From: a virus
Taxonomy: Duplodnaviria; Heunggongvirae; Uroviricota; Caudoviricetes
IMG/VR virus record: IMGVR_UViG_2579778982_000025
Coordinates: 1 to 20,390 of that record
Direction: 5' to 3' (one strand)
Length of the DNA: 20,390 nucleotides
Below the pieces are notes generated by a model. The model did no database searches. It saw only the letters and a list, made by a program, of their open reading frames with translations, and was not told the DNA's origin. A program made the translations under genes and the position numbers. This document shows positions 5,330-20,390 of this stretch, piece after piece (the first letter of the stretch is position 1; each line of letters opens with the position of its first letter).

Positions 5330-5460
5330 CTGGAGTTAGGCCAGTAGTATGATGCTCGCAAAACGAGATCCAATTTAGATCCTTTTACTGGTGGATTATC
5401 GTTCGATCAGTGAGAGACTTCGTGCATGACCGAAAGTGTTGTGGTAGAGTTCTCTTAAAA

Positions 5461-5473
5461 CCACGTAACGTGG
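5461..5473. promoter_or_regulatory. operator-like palindrome CCACG-TAA-CGTGG upstream of the repA control region
   Basis: Perfect 5-3-5 inverted repeat with the same CCAC(A/G)-N3-(C/T)GTGG architecture as the sites clustered in the cI/cro intergenic region; next to a TATGAT -10-like hexamer at 5475-5480. Confidence 0.4.
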
Positions 5474-5511
5474 TTATGATTGTGGGTGTCTGGTTGGAAA
5501 CTGACCAGATA

Positions 5512-8997: not shown

Positions 8998-9085
8998 CTG
9001 AAATGTCTTTTTCAAGACCTTGCCAATAAGCTAAACAAAAATGTTTAATCATTCGCCTAAAAAAACACCAGTCACTATTATTTAT

Positions 9086-9186
9086 ATAATTATATATTTA
9101 TATAAAAAGTGCTTTACAGGTGGGAAAAAATTTCCTAAGGTTATACCCGAAACCGAGCGATACCCGCCCTGGTTAAACCGGAGATA
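9086..9186 (+). promoter_or_regulatory. repeated promoter / 5'UTR cassette, copy 1
   Basis: Near-identical to 19153..19252. Contains TTTACA - 17 bp - TAAGGT (TATGGT in copy 2) promoter-like hexamers, a ~55-nt leader and a GGAG RBS, preceded by AT-rich palindromes. Confidence 0.5.
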
Positions 9187-11188: not shown

Positions 11189-11216
11189 AAGCGCCCAAAT
11201 CGGGCGCTTTGTTTTA
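11189..11216. terminator. bidirectional terminator
   Basis: aagcgccc-aaatc-gggcgctt followed by tgtttt, between convergent genes. Confidence 0.6.
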
Positions 11217-12356
11217 TGGTTTTGCACCTGCGGCCAGTTTATCCGCCGATATCTTTATCAGTTCCTGTAGTGTCCTGGCTGGTAGGTTTGCATCCAGTAC
11301 GCTGAGTATGCTGCTGTGATCTGCCTGGTCGACTACTTTGCCTGTCGGTGGTAGTAGCTTGAGCTGAGGATTCAGGTTTTCGTCAAAGCTGATCAGTGCT
11401 CTGGCGTTTCTGAGCAGATCAAGAAGTAAGGCTGATATCACATTTTCCTGAGTCATTGCTGGCAGATTTAGCGCCGCTTTGGTTTTCCCTGTTGCCTTGT
11501 CAAACTCCTTGATTAGTTCCTTCCTGTAGTTCGGTTCCGTTAATAGCCGATTATGCTCTGTTGCCGCGCGGATAATCGTTTTTTCCTGGTACAGTCGTTT
11601 AGCCAGATCACGCTCGTACTGTGTTTTTAACACGCTGCTGATAGCGTTAAAGGCTTCAATGTAGGCCAGCTTGATATCTTTCACGCTTGGACCGTCGATG
11701 CTCTCCATGAGTAAGGTAAATCCGTCTTTTGTCATGCGATAGATTGTTATTTCGCGGTCGCTTCCTTCCAGCGGTCGTTGCTCTTTAAAGAAGTGACGCG
11801 CCGCAGCCGTGCGAGGAATGCGTAGCGCATCGATGGCCATAACGATGGAATTGTTTGTGGTGCTGAATGCCTGGGCAACATCGGCTGAGGTTGTGAGTGG
11901 CTCGTTGTTGCACACTTTAATGTAAAACATCGGTTTGGCGTTGAGCGTATCGACAACCTCACGAGCATTGTTTGGCGAGACGGTAACGGTCGCGGCCGTT
12001 TGCGCGTTCTGGTTGAAGTAGCAGTCTTCCAGCCGTTCGAACACATCCCACGCTTGGTTAGTTTCAAGCATTTTGGCGTGACGTGCAGCCCCGCGTTCGG
12101 TCCAGAGGATTAGTTTTCTAACGTTATTCGCGATGGTTTGAAAATCTCTTAAAGAGATTTTCAAACTTTGGAGATCTGTACCTTTTACAACTATGAAATG
12201 TTTTCCTTCTGTAAACCGGGACTTATTACGGTGGTGATTTCTGTGAAGACATTCGACGCTACAGCCATATAGTTTGGCAAGCAGCTCCGTGGTGATAACG
12301 GGGATCTGGTTATGCAGGATAGGCTGTAGGGTGTTAACGGTCGGAAGCGTTTTCAT
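11214..12356 (-). CDS. phage antirepressor-like protein (ORF6N/Rha-type N-terminal DNA-binding domains, long C-terminal region)
   Basis: 380 aa. N-terminal ...ITTELLAKLYGCSVECLHRNHHRNKSRFTEGKHFIVVKG... resembles ORF6N-type antirepressor domains; a second similar segment ...TTSADVAQAFSTTNNSIVMAIDAL follows. Family assignment is from memory of motifs only. Confidence 0.55.
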   Translation of the reverse strand: MKTLPTVNTLQPILHNQIPVITTELLAKLYGCSVECLHRNHHRNKSRFTEGKHFIVVKGTDLQSLKISLRDFQTIANNVRKLILWTERGAARHAKMLETNQAWDVFERLEDCYFNQNAQTAATVTVSPNNAREVVDTLNAKPMFYIKVCNNEPLTTSADVAQAFSTTNNSIVMAIDALRIPRTAAARHFFKEQRPLEGSDREITIYRMTKDGFTLLMESIDGPSVKDIKLAYIEAFNAISSVLKTQYERDLAKRLYQEKTIIRAATEHNRLLTEPNYRKELIKEFDKATGKTKAALNLPAMTQENVISALLLDLLRNARALISFDENLNPQLKLLPPTGKVVDQADHSSILSVLDANLPARTLQELIKISADKLAAGAKP

Positions 12357-12640
12357 TTTGCACCTCCCATAACTACTTTGGTTACGAGGGAGATTTTTGC
12401 GTCAGAAACAGCGTTATCGTTGCTGGCGATGCGCATAGCTTCGCGCTCGATGATTTCAGCCAGGCGGAATTTATCGGCGTATGAGGCTTTCTTGAGAAGG
12501 ATCTTTACGAGGTTGACGTAATAGTCATGGGGTAAGTTTGTCATGATGATAGTTCCAGTTTTGATATTGGAATAATCACCACCGCTGACGCCAATCAGTG
12601 AGGTGGTGAGACGTACAGGGTTGGCGTAACCGGTCATCAT
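12353..12640 (-). CDS. hypothetical protein
   Basis: Stop overlaps the start of the antirepressor-like gene in an ATGA arrangement, suggesting translational coupling. Start ambiguous between 12640 and an internal ATG (MTNLPHD...). Confidence 0.4.
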   Translation of the reverse strand: MMTGYANPVRLTTSLIGVSGGDYSNIKTGTIIMTNLPHDYYVNLVKILLKKASYADKFRLAEIIEREAMRIASNDNAVSDAKISLVTKVVMGGAK

Positions 12641-12844
12641 GATACCCGGCGAGCCTTACGGCTCCCCCGCACGCCCCACCATAATTCGGGTGTAGCTGTG
12701 CTTTACGCATAAAAAAACCGCTAACGCGGTATGCGCCATGATGATTATCGGGACGCCAATCCCGACCGTAGATTTTGCTACGGCTCGGAAAGTGTCCACC
12801 AATGGCGCATTTATGTCAATACAGCGGGATTTTAACAGACTAAA

Positions 12845-12857
12845 CCACATAGTGTGG
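12845..12857. promoter_or_regulatory. operator-like palindrome CCACA-TAG-TGTGG
   Basis: Same motif class as the cI/cro operators; in the divergent intergenic region 12641-12994. Confidence 0.4.
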
Positions 12858-12883
12858 GTTTGAATGCGGGGCTTTTAATTTTC

Positions 12884-12994: not shown

Positions 12995-13534
12995 ATGATT
13001 GAACTGTCAAAAAACTCATGTTTTTCAACCATTCACCTAATGATCATAAAAGAACTTAGGCTAGAAAGAGGTGTGCATCAAGGAGTACTGGCTCAAGCTG
13101 CTGGAAAAACACCAAACGCATGGACAAAGATAGAGAACGGGCAGTCTGTATTAACAGTTGACGCCCTTTTTGGTGCTTTCACAGCCCTTAATATTACTCC
13201 AGTGAATTTCATGTCATTGGTAGAAAATCTTATTCCCGAATTTAACCGTTATGGTTACTTCTTTTTCCCTGGAACAATCAGTCAGGACGAGGATAACCTT
13301 TTACCTCTGATGCTGCGTTACTTTAATAGCAAGGGGTTTGAAGCATTGAGAAATAGGCCATTCGAAAGAGTTAGCATTAGCTCAATGGGATTCTCATTTG
13401 GGGGCGGCATCCCTGTTACTCCAACTGCTGTAATGTATTGTTGCGATGAAGCATATAGAAATTGGGTCGATAACGGTGCTGATGTGGATAATCGAGATTA
13501 TCTGGAGTCATCAACAGGTCGTGGACTGTTTTAA
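12995..13534 (+). CDS. HTH (XRE-like) domain protein with C-terminal domain of unknown function
   Basis: 179 aa. N-terminal LMIIKELRLERGVHQGVLAQAAGKTPNAWTKIENGQSV is HTH-like. RBS GGGGA upstream of ATG 12995. Confidence 0.55.
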   Translation: MIELSKNSCFSTIHLMIIKELRLERGVHQGVLAQAAGKTPNAWTKIENGQSVLTVDALFGAFTALNITPVNFMSLVENLIPEFNRYGYFFFPGTISQDEDNLLPLMLRYFNSKGFEALRNRPFERVSISSMGFSFGGGIPVTPTAVMYCCDEAYRNWVDNGADVDNRDYLESSTGRGLF

Positions 13535-13739: not shown

Positions 13740-13971
13740 GTAGGTTACTGATTTTGTGAAAATAAACTGTTTTTTTCGTTTAATTTCTTTCCTATTACTA
13801 ATCTTAAAATAATCGTAAAATACCTGTGGACCTTCCCGCCGATTCGCACCCGGGCACCGACTTTAGGGGAGGATTTCCTGTTGCCGTACATGCAAGCACA
13901 AGCAGCCGTGCTTGCTCTCGCGTTGTTTTCGTCGGTGGGGATGTCGTGAAACGGCCTGTAAGGGCCACACA

Positions 13972-14094
13972 ATGAAAAAATACTACATGTGTATTTTTAT
14001 CGTTGTTACTGGAGCTTTGTTTACGCCACATGGGGAGGGTTGGAAGATTACTGATAACGCTCTGAATGTGACGATAAACATTAGCAGCAAGTAG
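13972..14094 (+). CDS. small hydrophobic peptide (40 aa), candidate small membrane protein or type I toxin
   Basis: MKKYYMCIFIVVTGALFTPHGEGWKITDNALNVTINISSK. RBS AGGG 7 nt upstream. Strong terminator immediately downstream. Confidence 0.4.
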   Translation: MKKYYMCIFIVVTGALFTPHGEGWKITDNALNVTINISSK

Positions 14095-14099
14095 CGATT

Positions 14100-14123
14100 A
14101 GGCCCCTTCGGGGGCCTTTTTTA
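14100..14123 (+). terminator. rho-independent terminator
   Basis: aggcccc-ttcg-ggggcct followed by tttttta. Confidence 0.7.
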
Positions 14124-14132
14124 TGGTTGAAT

Positions 14133-14282
14133 TTAAACGCTTGAGCGCATTAAGCCTTTCAGAACTGCTTCACGTACCCATTCTGGCCTGGTGGATAGCA
14201 GGGCAAATAAGCGACCAGCTTGCAGCCGTTTGAGGTCGGTTAGACGAGTTTTCAGTAACCGTGTATATTGTTGTTCGGACAT
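14133..14282 (-). CDS. small hypothetical protein (49 aa)
   Basis: MSEQQYTRLLKTRLTDLKRLQAGRLFALL...; ATG 14282 preceded by AAGGGGA. Co-oriented with and downstream of the partition genes. Confidence 0.35.
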   Translation of the reverse strand: MSEQQYTRLLKTRLTDLKRLQAGRLFALLSTRPEWVREAVLKGLMRSSV

Positions 14283-14344
14283 AACAAATTCCCCTTGTTG
14301 TGTCGCGACGGCCAACAGTTGGCGCTGGAGGCCGTCACCTTCTC

Positions 14345-14593
14345 TTACTTCTGGTTGTATTGAGCCTTGAGTAACTCAAAAGATTTTGTCAGCACTTCTT
14401 TCAATGACATATCCATTGAGCTGGCGAATGTTTTGTACTCACGTTTAAATTCAGGGTCGACGTTAAACGCCATTTGTGCCCCACCTGATTTGGTTCTGGT
14501 TGGCGTTTCAGTCGGGTCGAAAACCTGCGGTTGTTCGATCGATGGCGGTACGCCTTTGCTGTTCTTCTTTGGTGGTTTTGATGGTGCGGCCAT
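14345..14593 (-). CDS. ParG-like ribbon-helix-helix partition / centromere-binding protein
   Basis: 82 aa with a basic, flexible N-terminus and C-terminal ...AQMAFNVDPEFKREYKTFASSMDMSLKEVLTKSFELLKAQY, resembling RHH ParG-type partners of small ParA ATPases. RBS AGAGGGG. Immediately downstream of parA. Confidence 0.55.
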   Translation of the reverse strand: MAAPSKPPKKNSKGVPPSIEQPQVFDPTETPTRTKSGGAQMAFNVDPEFKREYKTFASSMDMSLKEVLTKSFELLKAQYNQK

Positions 14594-14636
14594 GTGTATC
14601 CCCTCTTATATAAATCTATAAAACTATAATTATATA

Positions 14637-15290
14637 TTACGCGGCAGTAGTCAGAGCCTCAAGCTGGTTGATAATCCCCTGAATAACGTCGTCTGCCTTT
14701 TTGCGTGGCGCAACGTATGAGCACTCAATGAGGCTTAAGCCCTTATCCTGAGCTTTGCTCAGAGCTGGCTTGTGGGGAATGTACTTATCGACAACAAAGT
14801 ATGGCGTATTAGCCAGGTACTCTTGGGCTTCAATGTAGTCGGCTTCGTTTTCAGCCGCGCCTGAGAACACCATGCAAATTTTCTTGATTGGCACACCCTT
14901 TTTAACGATGCCATGAGCTGTGTTAACGGTGGTTTCCAGGTCATCGGTAGAGAATCTGGTTGGCAAAATAACCATATCCAGAAATTCAGAGAGCTTCGGT
15001 ACTGATTCAGATGCGTAGGCACCGCCATCGACGATAACCAGGTCGTATACTTCTGATTCGATGATTTTCTGGACTTGTGATGGTGTGCCGCACGGCTGCG
15101 CCGCGATTGCAGGTTCGATATTGTTGGCCATTCTGCGTTGTACCCAACGCGTTACCGTTCCGTTAAGCACATCCATATCGATCAGGCATACATTCCAGCC
15201 GGCCTTTGCATAAGCAACTGCTAAAGCACGGGCAATTGTTGATTTGGTTACGCCGCCTTTTCCGTTGAAAATACCTACAGAGATAGTCAT
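14637..15290 (-). CDS. parA: ParA-family partition ATPase (small type Ib, deviant Walker A)
   Basis: MTISVGIFNGKGGVTKSTIARALAVAYAKAGWNVCLIDMD... has the KGGxxK[ST] deviant Walker A at the N-terminus. 217 aa from ATG 15290; the ORF-track start 15305 adds 5 residues without an RBS. Confidence 0.75.
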   Translation of the reverse strand: MTISVGIFNGKGGVTKSTIARALAVAYAKAGWNVCLIDMDVLNGTVTRWVQRRMANNIEPAIAAQPCGTPSQVQKIIESEVYDLVIVDGGAYASESVPKLSEFLDMVILPTRFSTDDLETTVNTAHGIVKKGVPIKKICMVFSGAAENEADYIEAQEYLANTPYFVVDKYIPHKPALSKAQDKGLSLIECSYVAPRKKADDVIQGIINQLEALTTAA

Positions 15291-15305
15291 TTGTCGAGAC
15301 TCCAT

Positions 15306-15420
15306 GTGTTTGGTTATATAATTCTATAAATCTATATTTATAGAACGAGGTAAGCATAACCAACTTTTTGGCGGATGAAAAGTGTTTTATATAATTATAT
15401 AAATCTATAATCATATAAGC
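15306..15420. repeat. AT-rich palindromic repeat cluster upstream of parA (candidate centromere / partition operator)
   Basis: Two blocks, ttatataattctataaatctatatttataga (15314-15344) and ttttatataattatataaatctataatcatata (15385-15417), built from TATAAATCTATA and TATATAATTATA units. Confidence 0.45.
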
Positions 15421-15440
15421 GGGCGTTAGCCCGCTTGCAG

Positions 15441-15815
15441 TCAGAGGTCAGCTATCGTTGATATCAGTTGATTTGCTAGCTGTCGCTGTTTACGTGAGAG
15501 GGTTAGAGCAGCTTCTGAGCGGTCGCTAAGAGGGGTGTTTTCATCAAGAATCATGAGGCATACAGAAATAATAGCCCTGTTATATGCCATCAATGGCTGG
15601 CACAGCTTCGATACCGCTGGCACATCGTATTGTAAGGCCGTTTTGAGGCAGACTTTTTGTTCTGATGCCAGATGAAGGATAGATTCTATCCAGTCGATAT
15701 CTTTCTCATTATCAATGATTTGGCATAACATACACTCAATCGCTATGTTCAACGCTTGGATTTCGATTCCAGCAGTGATCAGAGTTTCGTTTTTATTGGC
15801 TGTATGTAATTCCAT
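15441..15815 (-). CDS. hypothetical protein encoded downstream of and co-oriented with the repressor gene
   Basis: 124-aa ORF with RBS AGAGG; no motif recognised. An operator-like palindrome lies just upstream. Confidence 0.5.
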   Translation of the reverse strand: MELHTANKNETLITAGIEIQALNIAIECMLCQIIDNEKDIDWIESILHLASEQKVCLKTALQYDVPAVSKLCQPLMAYNRAIISVCLMILDENTPLSDRSEAALTLSRKQRQLANQLISTIADL

Positions 15816-15851
15816 GCGTAGCCTCTTTTATACTTTTACATGTTGTCAAAA

Positions 15852-15864
15852 CCACAAAATGTGG
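15852..15864. promoter_or_regulatory. operator-like palindrome CCACA-AAA-TGTGG
   Basis: Perfect inverted repeat within aaaccacaaaatgtggttttttt, between the repressor gene and 15441..15815. Confidence 0.45.
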
Positions 15865-15907
15865 TTTTTTTGAGCGTAGAAATGCACGGCTTTCGCCGTG
15901 CTGTGTA

Positions 15908-16564
15908 TCATAACCAGTTGACAACACTAACTACGCGGCCAAGAACTTTATAACGCTTAAATTCCTCGTTATTCAGATGATTAGTGTTCATTTCAGCGTC
16001 CCTTTCGGTTGACAGCATAACAGCATTGTCACCCGGTATGACTCTACAGTGCCTCAAAACAACCAGGCCATTTCTGTCTTCAAGGGCATAGATCCCCTCA
16101 TGAATCTCTGTATCGTCTGTATCAATCAGGACTTGGGAGCCAGGGGATATTGTTGGTGACATTAACTCATCGTTGCTCTGGAGAACTGACAGAGACGATG
16201 GGTTGATGTTCTTGCTTCGTAGAATCTCCTGTTCTATCGCCAGCACTGGCTTTTCTCCGGCGTGCGATGCTATGTCATTTTTTATAGCTACAAGCCCAGG
16301 AATAACAGGAGCGTTAGTATTCTGGGGTGGGAACGGGTTATCTGTTAAGCACGCGATATAAGGCGCTGATGCTTTCAGGGCGTGCGCGATTTTCTTGATG
16401 GCAGGTATAGATGGTTGTCTTAATCCGGCCTCATAGTTCTGCAAGGTGCTTAAGCCTATTCCAGTGACTTGCTGGAGATCTCCGGCAGTCATGCCGGATT
16501 GTTTCCGTAGAGTCTGAATGCGCAGACCTATTTCTTTCTTGATGTTCTCGTCGTTGCTTTTCAT
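15908..16564 (-). CDS. CI/LexA-like phage repressor (N-terminal HTH, C-terminal S24 peptidase-like autocleavage domain)
   Basis: 218 aa. N-terminal HTH (LRKQSGMTAGDLQQVTGIGLSTLQNYEAG). C-terminal region with MSPTISPGSQVLIDT and KVLGRVVSVV resembles the Ser/Lys dyad regions of LexA and lambda CI. Divergent from a Cro-like gene, with operators between. Confidence 0.8.
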   Translation of the reverse strand: MKSNDENIKKEIGLRIQTLRKQSGMTAGDLQQVTGIGLSTLQNYEAGLRQPSIPAIKKIAHALKASAPYIACLTDNPFPPQNTNAPVIPGLVAIKNDIASHAGEKPVLAIEQEILRSKNINPSSLSVLQSNDELMSPTISPGSQVLIDTDDTEIHEGIYALEDRNGLVVLRHCRVIPGDNAVMLSTERDAEMNTNHLNNEEFKRYKVLGRVVSVVNWL

Positions 16565-16602
16565 GTCTCATCAATCGTGAATGGTGGGTTATTTATACAT
16601 TA

Positions 16603-16718
16603 CCACATTTAGTGGTTTTCACATGGTAAGACGAGAGGTGGACCACAAATAGAAGGTTATTTTTTGTTTCGCCCATTGAAAAACTCACGATATGTGGTTT
16701 TAATACCACATATCGTGG
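16603..16718. promoter_or_regulatory. immunity-region operators and PR-like promoter
   Basis: Operator-like sites CCACA-TTT-AGTGG (16603-16615), TCACG-ATA-TGTGG (16685-16697) and CCACA-TAT-CGTGG (16706-16718). The last two are inverted copies of each other, 21 bp centre to centre. They bracket a strong promoter TTGAAA (16676-16681) - 17 bp - TTTAAT (16699-16704) reading into the Cro-like gene. Confidence 0.6.
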
Positions 16719-16737
16719 TTTAACTGGAGTTCGTTAA

Positions 16738-19088: not shown

Positions 19089-19152
19089 AAGTGTCATTTT
19101 GAGCTGTTTTGATGGTGTGTAGACATCGGGAACATCGAAAATCTATAAATAT

Positions 19153-19252
19153 ATAATTATAGATTTATATAAAAAGTGCTTTACAGGTGGGAAAAAATTT
19201 CCTATGGTTATACCCGAAACCGAGCGATACTCGCCCTGGTTAAACCGGAGAA
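19153..19252 (+). promoter_or_regulatory. repeated promoter / 5'UTR cassette, copy 2
   Basis: About 95% identical to 9086..9186 (offset ~10,066-10,068 bp). TTTACA - 17 bp - TATGGT, shared leader, GGAG RBS. Confidence 0.5.
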
Positions 19253-20335: not shown

Positions 20336-20390
20336 ACGGCGGGACGTCTCCCGCCGTATATAGAATTATATATTTATATAAATATATAAG
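20336..20390. terminator. hairpin terminator followed by an AT-rich palindromic repeat block
   Basis: acggcggga-cgtc-tcccgccgt (20336-20357), then tatagaattatatatttatataaatatataag, the same repeat family as at 9081, 14607, 15314, 15385 and 19139. Confidence 0.45.

Follow-up and report, generated by a model that had tools for sequence, protein, structure and literature searches.

Repressor, gene X and partition genes of an Escherichia coli phage-plasmid as three putatively separate transcription units

In a 20,390-nucleotide (nt) stretch of viral DNA (IMG/VR record IMGVR_UViG_2579778982_000025, positions 1 to 20,390; hereafter the window) five minus-strand genes follow one another: a prophage repressor gene, a gene for a protein of 124 amino acids (aa; gene X), parA, the gene of a small basic partner and a small open reading frame (ORF). 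The original prediction, made from the sequence alone, took this block for a possible maintenance operon expressed with the repressor in the lysogen, X being a cargo gene and a candidate superinfection-exclusion or defence function. All five ORFs are present where that prediction had placed them, and their order and coordinates on the minus strand were verified. In the reading that we favour, and to which we give about an even chance, the block would instead consist of three separately controlled units in a lambda/N15-like layout, with X gated by the repressor and partition autonomous. A terminator hairpin and an operator after the repressor gene, a hairpin after X and a parA promoter of its own between iteron arrays all argue against a single operon (Table 1). 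Overall, the block combines a lambda/N15-type immunity layout with a type Ib-like partition cassette, neither of them out of the ordinary, and one conserved uncharacterised protein.

The 4.3 kb around the block are 95–99% identical to about 60 non-mobilizable plasmids of 46–52 kb, mainly of E. coli origin, among them the 48,488-bp plasmid of ATCC 25922, and 96% identical to the 49-kb Yersinia phages vB_YpM_39/41/44. One match, CP032086 (94,204 bp), is listed in the newly described "p-p47" phage-plasmid family (bioRxiv 10.64898/2026.08.19.745698), and we therefore assign the window to that family. For p-p47, transfer via phage has been demonstrated, the replicon is of an IncFII-like RepA/CopA type, and mitomycin C and ciprofloxacin give no induction; the preprint gives no account of the immunity or partition region (bioRxiv 10.64898/2026.08.19.745698). 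A search of the literature for these locus tags and for the Yersinia phages found no mention of either.

Nearly all of the 65 coding sequences of the complete ATCC 25922 plasmid lie on the strand opposite to the block, which shares its own strand only with the antirepressor operon and a single gene for tail-fibre assembly, so that the co-orientation of the block is not trivial. The five-gene order is present in every relative found (in Citrobacter, Yokenella, Salmonella, Serratia and unassigned assemblies), with a cro-like gene and, divergent from it, the repressor, X, ParA, the small partner and a 48–49-aa gene. GTDB species representatives gave no context of the block outside the family, and metagenome and IMG/VR contigs yielded only the same element.

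Results

Terminator and operator between the repressor gene and X

No gene lies between the repressor and the terminator-type hairpin, which has a folding energy of −15 kcal/mol (z = −4) and is followed by a T-tract that reads ATTTCT in the window and T6–T8 in all clades bar E. coli. About 13 nt beyond ATTTCT comes the OL-type palindrome, and a further ~35 nt lead to a GAGG Shine-Dalgarno (SD) sequence and the ATG of X. Every relative examined shows this order (stop codon, GC hairpin, T-tract, operator, ~35 nt, GAGG, ATG); the 10 diverged lineages among them include one whose repressor is 29% identical (L021) and the Serratia-type plasmids. Across the relatives 95.9% of the alignment cells of the terminator stem are paired and the loop is free to vary; there is one compensatory change, from A-U to G-C, a covariation without statistical significance. 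The operator before X is kept in all lineages and is doubled in the L021, Serratia-type and L026 clades. Among 21 near-identical loci of the E. coli clade its half-sites are invariant and the central 5 nt vary, and the Serratia-type clade carries variant half-sites (ACTAC/GTAGT) in the divergent region and upstream of X alike. We conclude from these comparisons that a terminator and an OL-type operator are selected features of the repressor-X spacer. An extra operator downstream of the repressor and before a co-oriented gene, as expected of lambda/N15-type immunity, is found at 15851–15865.

The repressor and its predicted operators

The repressor call holds: the protein matches HTH_3 (E 4.5e-11) and phrog_4, "transcriptional repressor" (1.8e-27), and has a weak S24-like C-terminal domain. 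In this domain (15908–16240) the Ser/Lys catalytic dyad is missing in all relatives. Aligned to LexA and lambda CI, the proteins have Glu or Asn in place of the catalytic Ser and Arg in place of the Lys. With both catalytic columns substituted the protein is, by this alignment, a non-cleaving CI-like repressor, in keeping with published work in which neither mitomycin C nor ciprofloxacin induced the family. Distant cI homologues of Vibrio phages (27–29% identity) were considered and were too remote to inform on X.

As in lambda and N15, the CI-like helix-turn-helix (HTH) repressor is divergent from a cro-like gene with shared palindromic sites between the two. The divergent region (16565–16737) holds two perfect and one imperfect copy of ACCAC-N5-GTGGT and one half-site. 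The imperfect copy fills the spacer of the strong rightward promoter, which is overlapped by the OR-type operators, and 4 nt downstream of the repressor-proximal copy there is a TATAAA hexamer on the minus strand. In the window we count 5 copies of the motif where 0.38 would be expected (the perfect ones at 16602, 16705, 15851 and 5460), and in the whole plasmid 8 where 0.71 would be. We take these sites for the operators of the switch, because they fill the divergent region and one of them sits in the spacer of a strong promoter. The presence of a perfect copy 37 nt upstream of repA also puts maintenance genes into the predicted repressor regulon, and through it the prophage repressor may gate plasmid replication, by analogy with the CB repressor of N15/phiKO2.

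A module like immI of P1 occupies 11214–12860 on the minus strand, with isrK (12711–12784), a C4 antisense RNA (12599–12686) and an Ash-like ORF of 95 aa, followed by an ORF6N/Rha antirepressor of 380 aa. At this module an operator with one mismatch (12844–12858) precedes a TTGACA hexamer by ~27 nt. The prophage is probably induced by way of the antirepressor.

Gene X

X had been called a cargo gene, which its distribution contradicts. Among family plasmids in PLSDB it is present in all 61 from E. coli, Salmonella and Klebsiella, always in the same slot, and this set is exactly the one that bears the 82-aa partner. In the two remaining plasmids, from Serratia, this slot is taken by a remote homologue (hhalign E 0.001, full length). 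X thus occurs in every diverged relative at the same position and shows none of the patchiness of a moron. Its ORF is intact and of constant length (121–133 aa) from E. coli to Serratia, its SD and ATG are conserved, and its ratio of nonsynonymous to synonymous substitution (dN/dS) is 0.14–0.28 against relatives with saturated synonymous sites. By these comparisons X is a real core gene under purifying selection. It is also the fastest-evolving protein of the block, at 49–60% identity beside 61–66% for the repressor, 74–76% for the cro-like protein, 92–96% for ParA and 91–97% for the 82-aa partner.

A role for X in superinfection exclusion or defence found no support. PADLOC returned only NucC at E 0.022, which is noise; no hydrophobic span, transmembrane segment or signal peptide was found, and a fold search gave no informative match beyond a generic soluble four-helix bundle. 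Pfam and NCBIfam gave no matches, and among PHROGs only phrog_7632 was hit at E ≤ 0.01, so that no similarity to annotated antirepressors was seen at that threshold. The remote-homology search suggested for the protein likewise gave only its own family and no defence match, both in a PDB profile search with two word-indexed searches of 5.8 billion proteins and in an exhaustive profile search of 1.84 billion representatives. The family comprises 7 representative clusters among those 1.84 billion, or 21 with a broadened profile, none of which is named.

AlphaFold predicts a compact up-down four-helix bundle with confidence (pLDDT 91.7). The conserved polar residues concentrate in helices 1–2 and in a DIDW turn, suggesting a binding surface; speculatively, X most likely acts by binding another protein, for example a switch modulator or a host factor. 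Co-evolution of X with the repressor C-terminal domain was tried (mirror-tree, six lineages) and set aside, as X tracked ParA/Ref at least as well as it did the repressor.

The hairpin that follows the X stop codon ends in a short tail rich in T and A, and most relatives retain it. Synonymous divergence (dS) changes abruptly around X: against one plasmid (L015) it rises from 0.013 in the repressor gene to 0.183 in X, and against another (L001) from 0.012 in X to 0.090 in parA. Since such jumps occur at both ends of X in near-identical plasmids, the conserved intergenic elements (15816–15907 and 15306–15440) seem to be recombination junctions.

The partition unit and the cargo spot

The view that the block contains a partition cassette of ParA and a small partner is supported. 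The parA ORF was listed as 14637..15305, and a second ATG at 15290 gives 217 aa; since GGAG precedes this ATG and the upstream one is GTG in relatives, it is almost certainly the true start. The product matches CbiA/ParA/MipZ and phrog_164 (CbiA 1.7e-12), reaches NF041546 ParA_partition at 4.7e-22 under the cutoff (78.5 vs 180 bits) and is weakly similar to ParF (PDB 4dzz, E 3e-4). It is a short Walker-type ParA that lacks an N-terminal DNA-binding domain, which is a mark of type Ib systems. The 82-aa partner had no match in Pfam or among PDB sequences, and none to ParG or omega. Its AlphaFold2 monomer is of low confidence (pLDDT 65.5), with residues 1–40 disordered and helices at 47–59 and 62–79, which is compatible with a ribbon-helix-helix fold whose strand would need a dimer. 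The protein is plausibly ParG-like. The small ORF, listed as 14133..14315, most likely starts at the conserved ATG at 14282 and encodes 49 aa, because 48–49-aa genes are called there in relatives. A conserved hairpin (GACGGCC...GGCCGTC, ~14307–14336, minus strand) lies between the 82-aa stop codon and this ORF and is kept in Citrobacter and others.

The iteron motif has 21 matches against 0.04 expected. Two of the arrays flank the predicted sigma-70 promoter of parA, which stands at the same position, 65–73 nt before the ATG, in six lineages whose spacers have otherwise diverged; its position weight matrix (PWM) scores are 9.0–11.2, where random 100-nt sequences score 6.1 at the median and 9.9 at the 95th percentile. 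Iterated sites around the parA promoter are a further type Ib mark. In Serratia-type relatives the partner is 40% identical and the iterons are of the TTTAAATA type; this change of iteron type with the partner argues that the 82-aa protein binds the iterons. As far as can be judged from its sequence, the cassette is of a standard type Ib design, probably autoregulated and with a predicted promoter of its own. Partition genes act in the plasmid-prophage state in P1 and N15, which together with the autonomous parA promoter supports the original prediction that they are expressed in the prophage.

Further intergenic arrays are found at 9081–9106, 19140–19173 and 20359–20388 of the window. In the ATCC 25922 plasmid (L023 16211–32560) eight iteron clusters extend over 16 kb, with 28 matches against 0.13 expected, and the dispersed clusters flank a DUF3560 gene and an MT-A70 methyltransferase gene. 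Their pattern points to a dispersed centromere or to the ParG-like protein being a global regulator.

The variable cargo spot of the family is the segment downstream of the 49-aa gene, between it and the antirepressor operon. The window has there, on the plus strand, a gene for a 179-aa HTH protein (12995–13534) and ryfA; one Citrobacter relative (L002) has a NinX gene, and two further relatives (L004 and L006) have no such insert. Within the ryfA region, ORF 13972..14094 encodes a 40-aa hydrophobic peptide (MKKYYMCIFIVVTGALF...), and ryfA is the mRNA of the type I toxin timP (PMC7667032). The ryfA/timP gene is convergent with the partition unit, and the hairpin at 14100–14117 is common to both; it is probably a post-segregational killing module.

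Table 1. Positions in the window of the genes and predicted regulatory elements discussed in the text
Feature	Position	Strand	Remarks
repA operator, perfect ACCACGTAACGTGGT	5460–5474		37 nt upstream of repA start (5511); TATGAT directly after
ryfA/timP	13826–14122	+	Rfam ryfA match, 144.7 bits
Strong hairpin AGGCCCC-TTCG-GGGGCCT	14100..14117		T-run on + strand only; shared with ryfA/timP transcript
Third partition-unit gene, 49-aa ORF	14133..14282	−	Very basic, pI 11.3; conserved
Candidate ParG-like centromere binder, 82 aa	14345..14593	−	Basic, pI 9.5
Third iteron array, four 8-bp units	14606..14637		In 43-nt spacer between parA and 82-aa gene
ParA ATPase, small, type Ib-like, 217 aa	14637..15290	−	Walker A KGGVTKST
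Proximal iteron array, four 8-bp units	15314..15345		Covers predicted parA transcription start
Predicted partition promoter, TTTTCA (15381–15376)-17-TATGCT (15358–15353)	15353..15381	−	PWM scan
Distal iteron array, four 8-bp iterons TATA(G/T)WWT	15387..15418		Upstream of parA promoter
Hairpin AAGCGGGC-TAAC-GCCCGCTT	15417..15436	−	−14.9 kcal/mol; 4 nt past X stop
Gene X, 124 aa	15441..15815	−	phrog_7632 (unknown function); acidic, pI 4.8
OL-type operator (AAA)ACCAC-ATTTT-GTGGT(TTT)	15851..15865		Perfect palindrome, 36 nt upstream of X ATG
Intrinsic-terminator-type hairpin GCACGGC-GAAA-GCCGTGC	15878..15901	−	6 nt past repressor stop
CI-like prophage repressor, 218 aa	15908..16564	−	N-terminal HTH and S24-like C-terminal domain
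Repressor-proximal operator ACCACATTTAGTGGT	16602..16616		38 nt upstream of repressor ATG
Predicted rightward promoter, TTGAAA-17-TTTAAT	16676–16681 and 16699–16704	+	PWM score 12.5, strong
OR-type operator, imperfect CTCAC-N5-GTGGT	16684–16698		Beside cro-like gene
OR-type operator, perfect ACCAC-N5-GTGGT	16705–16719		Beside cro-like gene

Discussion

Proposed regulation of the block and alternatives

In the three-unit reading the repressor would be transcribed leftward from the divergent operator region and its transcript would meet the terminator just past the stop codon. Repressor bound at the OL-type site would keep X low in the established plasmid prophage, either because it occludes a weak promoter around the operator, which would lie in the spacer, or because it stops polymerases that pass a leaky terminator, and it may loop to operators ~750–850 bp away. 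X would then be made mainly shortly after infection, or once the C4/isrK-controlled antirepressor inactivates the repressor. The third unit, parA with the 82-aa and 49-aa genes, would be driven by its own conserved promoter between the iteron arrays; the 82-aa protein probably binds these arrays, which would provide a centromere and autoregulation in the style of type Ib systems, and the prophage would express the unit without need of the repressor transcript.

Several observations weigh against this reading. The ATTTCT tract is found in 21 of 32 loci, which make up the window's own clade, and because this T-tract is so weak, read-through from the repressor promoter may be substantial in the E. 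coli clade, with X possibly made in lysogens. No sigma-70 promoter for X was found by consensus and PWM scans of the repressor-X spacer, where the best PWM scores (3.8–8.3) stay within background (random median 6.1) and shift in position between lineages, and an OL site lacking a PL promoter departs from the lambda/N15 picture. The palindrome and its A/T flanks can also fold as a hairpin (−9.3 kcal/mol), we infer rather than observe the occupancy of the ACCAC-N5-GTGGT sites by the repressor, and a protein-binding role for X derives from its fold and conservation pattern only.

Two candidate promoters for X were rejected: TTGACA at 15849–15844 as a −35 element, since its −10 element would coincide with the SD, and an extended −10 element, TGTAAAAGT, which about half of the lineages lack. 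A weak xAxxAT hexamer recurs 4–7 nt downstream of the OL-type operator and mirrors the −10 elements at the other operators. As no promoter was seen, the X mRNA must arise either at a promoter that is weak or needs an activator and whose spacer holds the operator, or by terminator read-through; with either source, repressor at 15851–15865 would lower X expression.

The alternative that survives best, which comes near to the original prediction and which we consider unlikely and still one to be reckoned with, is an attenuated lysogenic operon in which X has no promoter of its own and is made in lysogens through a deliberately leaky terminator, with a role there such as immunity, exclusion or defence. 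Here the main task of the operator would be DNA looping, by which the rightward promoter is repressed cooperatively. The failed promoter scans and the weak T-tract of the E. coli clade speak for it, as does the position of X on the repressor strand while almost all other genes face the opposite way, and X evolves fastest in the block, as expected of conflict-related genes. Against it, the terminator has T6–T8 in all other clades, and repressor bound 20–35 nt downstream of the terminator would block read-through when abundant. Moreover, X is a fixed core gene, neither variable nor moron-like, and has no match to a defence family and none of the membrane features typical of exclusion proteins. 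Some leaky co-transcription of X with the repressor in lysogens is possible.

A bolder extension of the three-unit reading, which we regard as rather doubtful, would make X the first of a new class of phage-plasmid switch proteins. Such a four-helix bundle would be made only once repressor occupancy drops and would bind the non-cleavable repressor or ParA/RepA, coupling the lysis-lysogeny decision to plasmid establishment, and the ParG-like protein would be a global silencer acting through the iterons over 16 kb, beyond its centromere role.

It is improbable that X serves plasmid maintenance instead of immunity, assisting or regulating either replication or the ParA/ParG-like partition system. 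X always stands directly upstream of the par iterons and parA, its distances track those of ParA (Spearman 0.90, over only 6 lineages), and repA too has an operator upstream. However, a hairpin and the par promoter part X from parA, and the conservation of ParA and the ParG-like protein (91–97%) against that of X (49–60%) is a poor fit to an obligate partner. No third protein is needed in known type Ib systems; to our knowledge this holds for TP228 ParFG and pB171 par2. That dS changes so sharply from X to parA in plasmids otherwise almost identical indicates that the two recombine apart, with breakpoints on both sides of X. Finally, that X is a decaying or functionless ORF held by linkage between two essential modules is very improbable: its family is indeed very narrow (7 clusters in 1.84 billion) and annotated nowhere, but the low dN/dS over saturated synonymous divergence, the intact ORF of constant length from E. 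coli to Serratia, the conserved SD and ATG and the confident fold all speak against it.

Comparison with known systems

The closest likeness is to N15 and phiKO2, where the CB repressor binds three OR and two OL sites, the latter between cB and a co-oriented repA, and likewise has no Ser/Lys dyad (PMC4997575). Both are phage-plasmids, and in both the CI-like repressor is devoid of the Ser/Lys autocleavage dyad. Both also have multiple operators where the repressor and cro genes diverge, one or more further operators just past the repressor gene and before a co-oriented gene, and a repressor tied to the replication gene, here by the perfect operator before repA. The systems differ in that the gene behind the downstream operator is X here and repA there, that the E. 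coli clade has one such operator and N15/phiKO2 two, and that an overlapping promoter is not recognised here. The ACCAC-N5-GTGGT sequence is unrelated, and the present element is circular with an IncFII-like RepA/CopA replicon (bioRxiv 10.64898/2026.08.19.745698).

The same order of repressor transcript, terminator, operator and next co-oriented gene is found in the lambda immunity region, with its order cI-rex, t-imm, OL/PL and N, where co-orientation with the repressor need not mean co-expression in the lysogen. However, lambda carries rexAB as lysogen-expressed passengers in the repressor transcript, whereas here no gene separates the repressor from its terminator, and the lambda OL has three sites and a strong PL.

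The window resembles P1 in its C4 antisense RNA and isrK before an antirepressor, a Ref nuclease and dispersed operators. In P1 the small protein Coi, adjacent to and controlled by the repressor, inactivates C1 by 1:1 binding (PMC8546580), and it offers a model for a possible role of a small helical protein beside the repressor. In contrast to P1, the repressor here is HTH_3/S24-like and no homologue of C1, X lies downstream of the repressor where Coi lies upstream, and X has no match to an annotated antirepressor PHROG.

The partition unit shares with type Ib systems (TP228 ParF/ParG/parH, pB171 par2 and pSM19035 delta/omega) a short ParA of 217 aa that is weakly ParF-like, a small basic partner, modelled here as a flexible N-terminal tail followed by C-terminal helices, and short tandem iterons around the promoter. 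It differs from them in the sequence of the 82-aa partner, which is not detectably similar to ParG or omega, in an additional iteron array between parA and the partner gene, in at least five more arrays scattered over 16 kb of the plasmid and in a conserved third gene of 49 aa.

Implications for the p-p47 family

Phage-plasmids of the p-p47 family are common in clinical E. coli and able to carry and amplify resistance genes (bioRxiv 10.64898/2026.08.19.745698). Being on the same strand as the repressor should not be read as co-expression with it. The map presented here offers testable parts for the immunity and maintenance circuitry of the family, which was previously undescribed: an operator sequence with five positions, including one before repA and one near the antirepressor operon, a predicted non-cleavable repressor, a putatively insulated and repressor-gated core gene, and a partition unit that would be autonomous and controlled by iterons.

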